Source: an uncultured Pirellulales bacterium (GTDB lineage: Bacteria > Planctomycetota > Phycisphaerae > Sedimentisphaerales > Anaerobacaceae). Taken from it: a stretch of 40,022 nucleotides of DNA. A program made the position numbers and the translations under genes. The notes beneath the pieces were generated by a model. It did not search any database, was not told the DNA's origin, and was given only the letters and a program-made list of their open reading frames with translations. Position 1 is the stretch's first letter. Every line of letters begins with the position of its first letter. This document shows, piece after piece, positions 14,622 through 16,335 of the stretch. The stretch lies in contig CAZOUM010000024.1 of the NCBI GenBank assembly GCA_964582985.1, positions 1 through 40,022 on the forward strand, given 5' to 3'.

Positions 14622-14735
14622 TCACCAGTCGAACTCAGCAACAATAGGTGTGTGGTCGCTGACGCCGTGATATCGAATACCACCGTGAACATTTCCGCTC
14701 GGACGCCGGCAAGTGTGCAGAACACAGCTAAAGTC
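14622..14735 (-). pseudogene. orphan 3'-end fragment of an exonuclease III (xth) paralog
   Basis: My translation of the minus strand gives ..[34 protein letters not shown]. Compare the C-terminus of the intact xth at 15565 (..[28 protein letters not shown]). Upstream stops truncate the fragment. The two copies differ at synonymous sites, so the divergence is old. Confidence 0.5.
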
Positions 14736-14809
14736 TTATTTTCAAACTGACCGATAGAATAATATAGTTGACCATTTTTAGCCTCCTTGCCGACCAGGGG
14801 CGTAGATAA

Positions 14810-15436
14810 ATGAAAACTGCGATTTGCGCGTCTCTTATTGTCTTGTGCACTTTAGTATGTTCATGCGAGTCATTGTTAAGCCTGCGTGAAACTAATTCTT
14901 CTGCTTGGGTGAGTTTTCATAAAGAAGCTGCCGTCGTCCGAAATGGATACAAAATGGTCCAAAGACTTGAACCCTCTACCTATGTCCGAAGTGTATACGT
15001 CCAAAGAAAATCAGACAAAAAACCCGTGCTTTTCTACACTCATGGGCGCCGAATCAAAGCTGCACTCGGACACCAGCGTCAACTGGTGCTTATCAACGAT
15101 TATTTTGCTACAAAAGCCTGTAAGGTCATGGTTGCAAATATCGACTCCGGGAACAATTGGAGGATAGATGAAAAAATATGCGAGCAACATATGCGCACCG
15201 CTCCAAAGCAGTGGCTCCCCTACCACGCAATCCCCAAAGCGATAGCTTTTTCACCGGACGACAAAATGGTGCTCATGGCAATGAAATCAGGTTATGTAGC
15301 TGGCTCTGCAGAAGAAGCGGATGACTTCGGAAAAAGATTCAAGCTTTGGTCATACGTTGTTGATTCTACCAACGGAACTGTGCTACATGTATACCAGACA
15401 AACGGAACTGTCCCCCGCAATTGGTGGAAATTTTAA
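14810..15436 (+). CDS. hypothetical secreted protein or lipoprotein (208 aa)
   Basis: N-terminus MKTAICASLIVLCTLVCSCES carries a signal peptide with Cys residues. It sits between the xth 3' fragment and the intact xth gene. Confidence 0.5.
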   Translation: MKTAICASLIVLCTLVCSCESLLSLRETNSSAWVSFHKEAAVVRNGYKMVQRLEPSTYVRSVYVQRKSDKKPVLFYTHGRRIKAALGHQRQLVLINDYFATKACKVMVANIDSGNNWRIDEKICEQHMRTAPKQWLPYHAIPKAIAFSPDDKMVLMAMKSGYVAGSAEEADDFGKRFKLWSYVVDSTNGTVLHVYQTNGTVPRNWWKF

Positions 15437-15564
15437 CTGCCCGTATATCCTGCTGCATCTGGTTTCGTGCCTTTGCCGCTTCACCTGACGTTTTGCTGTC
15501 CTAAAAACTCCAGATACGTACAAGCCGTTATGTGCAATGTCTACCCAGATGGTAGAAGTATCAC

Positions 15565-16335
15565 TTACCAGTCGAATTCCGCGACTATCGGCGTGTGGTC
15601 GCTCGGCCGCTCCGCAAGCCGCGGCTCTTTGTCTATATAGCACGCCCAACACTTCTCAGCCAGAGGCTTAGTAGCCATAATATGGTCTAACCGCCAGCCA
15701 AGATTACGTTTGAACGAATTTCTCATTCTATAGTCCCAGAACGTATATTGCCCCGCCTCCCTGCAATGCATCCTGAACACATCAACAAATCCCCAGCTCA
15801 TAACCTCCTTCAACGCCCTATGAACCTCCGGATGATAACAGACGTGCCCCAACAAGCTCTCCGCGTCATACACATCTATCGCTTCCGGCGCTATATTCAA
15901 GTCCCCTACCCAAAGAACAGCATCAGTTGACTCGAAGTTCTCACCGAAATACCTCCGCAGCCGCTCAAACCACTTTAGCTTGTACTCGAACCGCTCGGAC
16001 CCCGCCATATACCCCTGCGGCACATAAGTATTGACCATAACTACGCCCCCAATTTCCGCTCTTATAAGCCTCGCCTCATCCTTCGGCTCATCATCGAACC
16101 CAAATTGCACGTTTGCTATCTCACTTCTGCTGAAAATCGCCACCCCATTATAGCTCTTTTGCCCTTTGAACACATATTTGTACTCAGTCTTATCAAACGC
16201 ATCTCTCGGGAAGTCAACATCCTGTACCTTGGTTTCCTGCACGCACAAAACATCCGGCCGATGTTGCCCAAGCCACTCAAGAACCACAGGCAGCCGGGCC
16301 CGCAAAGAATTGACGTTAAAGCTCGCAACCTTCAT
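15565..16335 (-). CDS. xth: exodeoxyribonuclease III / AP endonuclease (Xth family)
   Basis: [31 protein letters not shown]... ends ...[12 protein letters not shown], a classic ExoIII/EEP-fold sequence of typical length (256 aa). Confidence 0.9.
   Translation of the reverse strand: [256 protein letters not shown]

Follow-up and report, generated by a model that had tools for sequence, protein, structure and literature searches.

What does a second, startless copy of the last codons of an exodeoxyribonuclease III gene (xth) signify when it lies on the same strand about 0.9 kb downstream of the intact gene, with a lipoprotein gene in between? The question is posed by a stretch of 40,022 nt (GenBank: CAZOUM010000024.1, assembly GCA_964582985.1; hereinafter the window) from an uncultured planctomycete placed in the Sedimentisphaerales, whose initial annotation had read the copy as the old 3′ end of xth, displaced by an insertion. 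We find that this 39-nt orphan is the original 3′ end of xth, real and not a chance match, and that the feature is a genuine but ordinary evolutionary scar rather than a new system, situated at a newly described hot spot, the junction at which xth converges on a gene for tRNA-Gln. Related loci are cited below by their L numbers.

The orphan xth end and the inserted DNA

The intact xth gene (15565..16335, minus strand; open reading frame [ORF] with the Pfam domain Exo_endo_phos) codes for a 256-aa protein that carries PF03372, is as long as its homologues (6668, with the source name exodeoxyribonuclease III) and keeps the C-terminal SDH catalytic motif. It ends in what is the C-terminal motif of Xth throughout the order, PSDHTPI[IV]AEFDW followed by the stop. 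One copy of the repeat, recovered by sequence comparison, a repeat search and a pattern scan, consists of the last 12 xth codons and the stop (15565..15603, minus strand; AGCGACCACACGCCGATAGTCGCGGAATTCGACTGGTAA, read as AGC GAC CAC ACG CCG ATA GTC GCG GAA TTC GAC TGG TAA). The other, recovered by sequence comparison, tblastn and the pattern scan, is the orphan, 12 codons and TGA without a start codon (14622..14660, minus strand; AGCGACCACACACCTATTGTTGCTGAGTTCGACTGGTGA, read as AGC GAC CAC ACA CCT ATT GTT GCT GAG TTC GAC TGG TGA). The two are identical at 32 of 39 nt and encode the same 12 residues, the seven differences being six silent third positions and the TAA/TGA exchange. The identical tail had been put at 13 residues; the residue ahead of the 12 is V in the orphan fragment and P in Xth, and a codon-by-codon comparison found nothing xth-like upstream of the 12 codons. 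The initial annotation had held that such a lack of similarity beyond the tail would undo the link to xth. The lack is real, but the pair is still not a product of chance: a pattern back-translated from the 12 residues and the stop has exactly two sites in the 40-kb window (0.00 expected; 100 shuffles), the repeat search independently recovers the pair (37-39 nt at 84%), and tblastn of the Xth C-terminus against the orphan fragment gives E = 6e-5 to 2e-4. The copy downstream of xth is therefore present as reported.

That the orphan is the native old end follows from position, since it stays with the old downstream flank. This flank (14545..14621) matches the flank of xth or of an xth orphan in L034 and L101, there a 3′ half of tRNA-Gln, over its first ~15 nt, and L034 is 87.7% identical to the window over 57 nt across orphan and flank. 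An alignment of tRNA-Gln to 14545..14621 is not significant, and tRNA ancestry cannot be shown there. All same-species contigs that extend to the site share the identical arrangement (L001-L006 and L008-L019; L007 stops inside the lipoprotein gene, short of the orphan), and no variant free of the lipoprotein gene occurs among the same-species contigs that span it. One same-species metagenome variant (L013, 2056-2558) has an in-frame internal deletion of xth that removes residues 125-212.

As first described, the layout is that of an intact gene, an inserted gene and a displaced old 3′ end. The inserted cargo is an intact ORF for a putative lipoprotein of 208 aa with a signal peptide and Cys (14810..15436, plus strand), which matches no Pfam family and belongs to a small family of only 15 protein clusters in 5.8 billion sequences. 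Its homologues at 50-60% identity (L106-L108) lie at unrelated loci, with neither xth nor the peptidase M48 gene of the present locus nearby, which fits a gene brought into the junction from elsewhere. The spacer between the xth stop and the lipoprotein stop (15437..15564) is where relatives hold an orphan of the M48 tail and the old intergenic spacer; in the window it gives no significant match to the M48 tail, which is no longer recognisable there.

The stretch directly upstream of the orphan in the minus-strand fragment had been translated together with the tail. It is the decayed 5′ stub of an insertion sequence (IS) transposase-like gene (14661..14790, minus strand), identified by blastx and by alignment with full copies, in which a ribosome-binding site AGGAGG (14782-14787) and an ATG (14773-14775) precede ~43 codons with stops. 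In a blastx search of the window against this family only 14793-14731 and 14711-14655 match (E = 0.002; E = 1e-6 for L102). The conserved ISD of the stub family meets the SDH of the orphan in a 6-nt overlap, AGCGAC, which supplies a shared Ser-Asp. Only 21 nt separate the stub from the start codon of the lipoprotein gene, and in relatives the lipoprotein stop directly abuts the M48 orphan. In full copies of the family (L136, L189, L190) ~95 nt of the element precede the ATG; the window piece (~150 nt) is internal, its left end and everything past codon 43 being missing. The insert is thus a patchwork of unrelated pieces, an IS fragment among them, and not a clean element; its junctions are tight, and at least one shows microhomology.

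The IS-like family (P0136-P0223) has ~88 protein clusters, with proteins of ~260-350 aa found mostly on contigs of 1-3 kb. Pfam returned no significant family for the IS-like protein, which is identified only through its own homologue family; one source names some members 'transposase-like'. On reading the sequences, these proteins may combine a zinc-ribbon N-terminus with a DDE-like pattern, which no library confirmed. Copies of the element (L136 12777-13343, L190 about 2270-3700 and L189 about 2400-3354), whose protein measures ~330-350 aa, share a left end that starts GTAACTGTCCCAAA.

The event in relatives and the xth/tRNA-Gln junction

Xth orthologues at 70-87% identity come from metagenome-assembled genomes of the Sedimentisphaerales/Phycisphaerae (Planctomycetota), and the comparison set comprised 164 related loci that carry xth. 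Comparing them for presence or absence of the inserted segment, a check that had been proposed at the outset, yields both states. In L101 (Xth 84% identical) there is no lipoprotein gene, and xth is followed by a decayed 3′ half of tRNA-Gln, ~0.5 kb, the M48 gene and the intact tRNA. In L102 and L110 (Xth 82% and lipoprotein 75% identical) xth is followed, across a spacer of 27 nt, by an orphan made up of the final 30 codons of M48; the lipoprotein gene comes next, then the IS stub and the orphan xth tail, and beyond another 27-nt spacer the full M48 gene, which thus lies ~27 nt from the xth orphan. The window and L102 align without a break through the lipoprotein gene, the stub and the orphan, which makes this a single insertion, dating from their common ancestor. 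Over 121 nt, L102 8772-8892 shares 91% identity with the true M48 tail and spacer, and the M48 orphan is seen also in L104, L105 and L110; the 121 nt of M48 tail and spacer together with the 39-nt xth tail make a duplicated target of ~160 nt. In L104 (800-1900) and L105 (2260-3350) xth itself is missing, with the lipoprotein gene, IS stub and M48-tail orphan retained, and the xth orphan was lost in another deletion, of 55 nt, with short GCTG repeats at its ends. The great age proposed for the event is borne out by its being common to L102/L110 and L104/L105; ~0.8 kb entered the extreme end of xth in an ancestor common to several Sedimentisphaerales species.

The M48 gene of the window (8419..9162, plus strand; identified by Pfam, its tail being co-duplicated in relatives) is the former convergent neighbour of xth. 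It is now parted from the orphan by a segment of ~5.4 kb (9163..14544, plus strand) that, from Pfam and the layout of relatives, is confined to the window lineage and codes for a Band_7 protein (9687-11198), two beta-helix proteins (11839-12987 and 13028-13870) and a 223-aa protein (13873-14544). This segment is a later insertion without detectable duplication, no remnant repeats being detectable around it. Neither the sequence after the M48 stop, examined for a third xth remnant, nor that next to the orphan, examined for one of M48, gave a significant match, and short M48-like inverted matches at 11788-11806 and 13923-13994 were judged to be chance.

The wider comparison places this event in a zone of persistent gene gain. 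A tRNA-Gln(CTG) gene lies downstream of xth on the opposite strand in 75 of the 164 loci: in 13 its 3′ end is 2-7 nt from the xth stop (xth abutting the tRNA, as in L113), and in 62 the gap ranges from 59 to 5,537 nt. In the window, where the tRNA (7423..7495, plus strand; ARAGORN, Rfam) is the gene on which xth originally converged and bounds the variable zone on its far side, the gap is 8,069 nt. The glycosyltransferase gene upstream of xth is kept in most loci; the first genes downstream of xth fall into 146 unrelated clusters among 80 loci. From these layouts, xth ancestrally converged on tRNA-Gln(CTG) at a distance of 2-7 nt. Since gap lengths and downstream gene clusters vary so widely, the junction is an order-wide hypervariable hot spot of gene gain, and, because the ancestral gap was tiny, 7496-15564 of the window amounts in evolutionary terms to inserted DNA. 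Empty states survive in relatives: the 13 loci with a gap of 2-7 nt, L101 for the lipoprotein gene and L040 for a GntR/Band_7 insert.

These counts also revise what is taken to be the target. The initial annotation had proposed insertions aimed at gene ends; here it is not xth alone but the crowded xth/tRNA-Gln junction that is hit, and at least 50 of the 62 insertions show no recognisable orphan beside the tRNA. An orphan is recognisable there in only 9 of the 62 filled junctions, so tail duplication is frequent but not obligatory. Next to xth or an xth orphan, L034 (8825-8880) and L101 (8808-8870) carry orphan 3′ halves of tRNA-Gln(CTG) that start at the anticodon loop and continue to the 3′ end; they match at 45/46 and 38/50 positions, levels reached by 0 of 1000 shuffles, and the intact tRNA lies 1.6-4 kb beyond them. 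Such halves are the classical signature of insertion into a tRNA gene. The only Pfam-recognised transposase at the hot spot is that of an IS110-family gene ~0.4 kb downstream of xth in L172 (1395-2546).

Recurrence of tail duplication and its mechanism

Recurrent insertion at the xth 3′ end, suspected from the window, is confirmed by the relatives: orphan xth tails on the xth strand downstream of xth occur at ~22 of the 164 loci and represent ~8 independent events, two of them stacked. Apart from the window clade, these are an insert with DJ-1 and Gfo-Idh-MocA genes (L034, L044/L167, L048, L030/L142 and perhaps L157), an AAA/DUF4143 ATPase gene in L045, a HEAT-repeat protein gene in L168/L171, a GntR and Band_7 insert in two settings (L053 type and L051 type) and the second, stacked inserts of L068 and L085. 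The cargo genes are ordinary and mutually unrelated. The direction of change can be read in three groups: the orphan abuts an intact tRNA-Gln in L168/L171 and in the L044 group, and in the L053 group the orphan with its flank equals the intact xth end of L040.

The extent of the repeat varies within limits. By stringent local alignment its left edge lies between -39 and -48 relative to the stop in five events and farther out, between -49 and -66, in three others, and its right edge falls within the stop codon in nearly all events, reaching at least +40 in the window clade. L045 and L168 are the youngest events. The L045 repeat is 41 nt at 95% with sharp edges; that of L168 is 40 nt at 90%, its silent sites being identical except for one in the flanking Pro codon, and its other changes are two amino acid-changing orphan codons (D to N) and a stop codon that differs at the junction. 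In L045 we also noted a 14-nt inverted repeat (785-798 and 2251-2264; 93% complementary) directly outside the 41-nt direct repeats; it would bracket the last 41 nt of an uninterrupted xth as a stem-loop and may be due to chance (~0.2 expected).

The stacked inserts have features of their own. Left of their orphans, L068 and L085 have the same 20 xth-like nt (CGGTTTCCGCCCCGCCCC), which differ from the xth of either genome. A foreign origin of the whole tail in these two was considered and set aside, the intact tails being only marginally more diverged than the gene body, so that just the argument from the shared left arm was kept. A 745-nt cassette (c38) with a gene for a 151-aa membrane protein is found at two different loci (L085 6870-7611 and L068 10622-11365) and is 94.8% identical between them against a genome background of ~84%. 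It shares a terminator-like left end and a ~120-nt right arm with another L068 cassette (6849-7930) with an unrelated gene of 256 aa; neither a recombinase nor inverted ends were seen at the c38 unit. A further module of ~240 nt, consisting of a fluoride riboswitch and a terminator and ending in a decayed xth tail (PSGHTPFITGFD and two stops), precedes several unrelated minus-strand genes downstream of xth in L066 (9382-9659, 10661-10938 and 11911-12130) and L068 (11440-11715). It looks like a regulatory leader copied along with an old orphan.

How, then, does the xth end come to be duplicated? For the window event we lean, while granting it somewhat less than an even chance, towards break repair or illegitimate capture with duplication of the target, filtered by selection. 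The junction offers no free spacer, so an insertion keeps xth working only if its last ~40 nt, from the catalytic Ser-Asp-His codons to the stop, are present twice, one copy completing xth and the other being stranded. A break at this fragile, crowded convergent junction would be mended by template-switching, microhomology-mediated repair, in the course of which unrelated pieces would be copied in: the lipoprotein gene, along with no more than the 21 nt ahead of it, and the ~150-nt internal piece of the IS transposase gene. The chromosome would then be rejoined ~160 nt behind the break at the AGCGAC microhomology, duplicating the xth tail, the 27-nt spacer and the final 30 codons of M48, at that time the adjacent gene. 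Selection would retain only outcomes with xth and its neighbour intact, and no dedicated recombinase would be necessary.

The patchwork nature of the insert, the AGCGAC junction, a 160-nt duplication that extends into the neighbouring gene and the heterogeneous outcomes across the hot spot favour such capture, as does the resemblance of the copies in the young events to resident DNA. No recombinase, integrase or resolvase was found in the inserts or flanks of the 164 loci by a motif scan of all ORFs and by Pfam searches of cargo and candidates, the only mobile-element proteins met being the IS stub and the IS110 transposase of L172. A degenerate tail pattern had no matches in viral contigs, no terminal inverted repeats mark the insert ends in the window, L045 or L168, and Rfam searches of the window locus and the L068 cassette, like a literature search for xth as an attachment site, returned nothing relevant.

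Several points count against capture by repair. Repeat edges that gather within -39 to -48 on the left (five events) and at the stop codon on the right are unexpected for random breakpoints and point to a defined site or enzyme; this clustering is the main fact that capture leaves unexplained unless a fragile site at the tRNA 3′ end is assumed. The patchwork could also have arisen stepwise, by an IS insertion followed by two deletions, and template switching is suggested by the anatomy of the junctions alone. A source locus for the lipoprotein gene with the IS piece was not found, and, only 40 kb of this genome being visible, a recombinase may be encoded elsewhere in it. Further, the window orphan has only silent changes, which is slow for neutral DNA and a minor unexplained point.

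The strongest competitor, which we rate as possible though less probable than capture, is a scar of attachment-site (att)-type recombination, in which small cassettes integrate by a single, Campbell-type crossover at the ~40-nt xth-tail segment. The site-specific recombinase at work would either have its gene elsewhere or have been lost by the cassette, as at the staphylococcal cassette chromosome mec (SCCmec) in rlmH or the integrative and conjugative and cis-mobilizable elements (ICE/CIME) at fda; each cassette would carry or regenerate the gene end, newer ones stacking next to xth. The clustered edges that trouble capture speak for this reading, as do the sharp repeats of the two young events, and the stacked insertions of L068 and L085 are each bounded by a tail copy. 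The left arm that these two share, being unlike their own xth, implies that it came with the insert, the c38 cassette is evidently mobile, and the tRNA-Gln halves of L034 and L101 have the form classically left by an integrase. Yet no integrase or resolvase accompanies any insert or flank and no viral contig holds the tail. The young repeats match the synonymous codons of their hosts, which argues for duplicated resident DNA rather than a foreign attP; the duplication in the window clade continues for 120 nt beyond the stop and enters the M48 gene; the terminus of the insert is a truncated IS fragment and not a defined element end; and most insertions at the hot spot have no orphan beside the tRNA.

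A more elaborate form of enzymatic insertion we consider unlikely. Here the xth/tRNA-Gln junction would be a dedicated capture platform, where an enzyme encoded elsewhere inserts recombinase-less cassettes at the xth end. A ruler-type integrase making staggered cuts ~40 nt apart, or a recombinase specific for the segment with the SDH codons, could be that enzyme; the tail could be duplicated each time and the cassettes stack in an integron-like manner, the docking site being the 3′ end of a housekeeping gene.

We think it very unlikely that a second, full-length xth once arose by tandem duplication and then decayed and was mostly deleted in situ, leaving the orphan as its final trace, with the lipoprotein gene and IS arriving later. 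The initial annotation had named decay of such a paralogue as a scenario that would refute its reading, and we found no support for it. The left edge of the orphan coincides with the junction to the IS stub, so a deletion could have removed more of xth; but tblastn of full-length Xth finds nothing else in the window or in L102-L105, the DNA upstream is IS-derived and its junction is the same in all members of the clade. Seven other events are equally short, among them two young ones with sharp 40-41-nt edges, and the M48 tail was duplicated too, which fits a short duplication of the junction and not one of the gene.

The exclusively silent differences between the two tails could suggest that the orphan is under constraint, but the relatives speak otherwise. 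The orphan frame has no start codon and has stops just upstream, and the L102/L110 orphans (SDHTPAVAEFGW) are decayed, with two replacements. For random substitutions, three hits would all be silent with p = 0.005 and seven with p < 5e-6, from which the window orphan took only ~0-2 hits. The L102 intact tail still keeps GTT GCT GAG like the orphan, and the window's intact tail now reads GTC GCG GAA, so that the silent-only pattern is largely due to drift of the intact gene. The L100 intact tail also carries orphan-like codons, which makes codon-level arguments about which copy is native unreliable. A foreign origin of one tail, once entertained from the silent-only differences, was dropped because the codon tables of relatives show intact-gene drift and a noisy signal. 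Lacking a start codon, and decayed or deleted in sister lineages, the orphan is neither expressed nor maintained, and its silent differences are no proof of conservation. We accord very little credence to chance or function as an explanation. As to function, the fragment might encode a small peptide, have a regulatory or terminator role, or be kept as a substrate of recombination by which the lipoprotein gene can be excised: its residues are identical to those of the Xth tail and direct repeats could in principle mediate such a deletion, but the frame is closed upstream, there is no Rfam match, several silent differences arose on the intact-gene lineage, L104/L105 lost the orphan yet kept the lipoprotein gene, and no same-species contig spanning the site has lost that gene.

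Comparison with known systems and a second locus in the window

Several known systems share traits with the xth locus. Staphylococcal cassette chromosomes (SCCmec and the ccr-less pseudo-SCC elements at the 3′ end of rlmH/orfX) likewise insert at the end of a housekeeping gene and leave it intact; direct repeats with the gene's last codons flank their inserts, which stack and often have no recombinase gene. Their repeats, however, are of ~15-18 bp and are made by the CcrAB/CcrC serine recombinases, whereas those here are of ~40 nt (160 nt in the window clade), with no recombinase at the 164 loci, an insert that is a patchwork with an IS fragment and a planctomycete host. Islands at tRNA/tmRNA genes and integrase-less CIMEs (such as that at fda in Streptococcus thermophilus) have in common with the xth locus a hot spot beside a tRNA, a displaced 3′ fragment that keeps its old flank, variable gene content between two conserved anchors and, in L034 and L101, orphan tRNA halves. 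They differ in that the xth-locus repeat lies in a protein gene beyond the tRNA 3′ end, no integrase is present and the young repeats copy resident DNA. Casposons (at tRNA or aEF-2 3′ ends, with 14-15 bp) and the duplication of CRISPR repeats by Cas1-Cas2 also duplicate a resident stretch of fixed length on either side of the insert, in the former a gene end, and the gene survives, but the xth repeat spans 39-66 nt (160 nt in the window clade), without terminal inverted repeats and with no Cas1 or casposase seen.

Microhomology-driven template switching and homology-facilitated illegitimate recombination resemble the window event in the patchwork, the 6-nt microhomology, the duplicated target and the want of a dedicated enzyme, but one would not expect such events to fall into a single 10-nt interval in five lineages. 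Integron arrays, too, stack short recombinase-less units at a fixed site with the newest nearest to it; unlike them, the xth locus has no intI and no attC hairpins, its cassettes have their own promoters and mostly converge on xth, and the repeated unit is a gene tail, so that in place of attC the cassettes are separated by xth tails or, in L066, by fluoride-riboswitch leaders. Of the marks of an integrative scar, the window has direct repeats around the insert, one of them completing the target gene, and empty sites in relatives; no recombinase gene was found in its insert or at the 164 loci. Because the defining recombinase was sought and not found, we do not file the locus under SCC, tRNA islands or casposons. 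For annotation, the case yields the rule that short orphan gene ends mark old insertion junctions. In this uncultured planctomycete order, the xth/tRNA-Gln junction provides a lineage-wide gene-gain hot spot whose empty, single and stacked states can be compared, and, should the clustered edges reflect an enzyme instead of a fragile site, it would represent a way for genes to be added to the end of an essential-type gene by elements that bear no integrase.

The same layout had been claimed for a restriction-modification (RM) locus of the window, and a search of both sites for a shared att-like core had been proposed. The layout is indeed similar. An Eco57I/MmeI-type RM gene (type IIG, 1018 aa; 34466-37522) is followed by two cassettes (region to 39700), the first coding for a 233-aa protein and the second for a trypsin-like lipoprotein and a 119-aa membrane protein, and after each cassette stands a copy of the conserved RM C-terminal helix (38201-38284 and 39624-39683). 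The parallel goes no further: the two RM orphans are closer to each other than to the resident RM tail, and the xth and RM junctions have no sequence core in common, a single shared 9-mer being about what chance predicts. The RM orphans are probably remnants of earlier or other RM alleles in a locus of high turnover.

Two smaller observations concern the ~5.4-kb segment of the window. The 524-nt spacer between the M48 and Band_7 genes contains three tandem units of 24 nt (9492-9563). The adjacent genes for secreted beta-helix proteins are 87% identical over 167 nt at their 5′ ends (11835-12001 and 13024-13190), which cover the signal peptide and N-terminus, and differ in their bodies, a pattern that suggests local duplication or exchange of a 5′ module.

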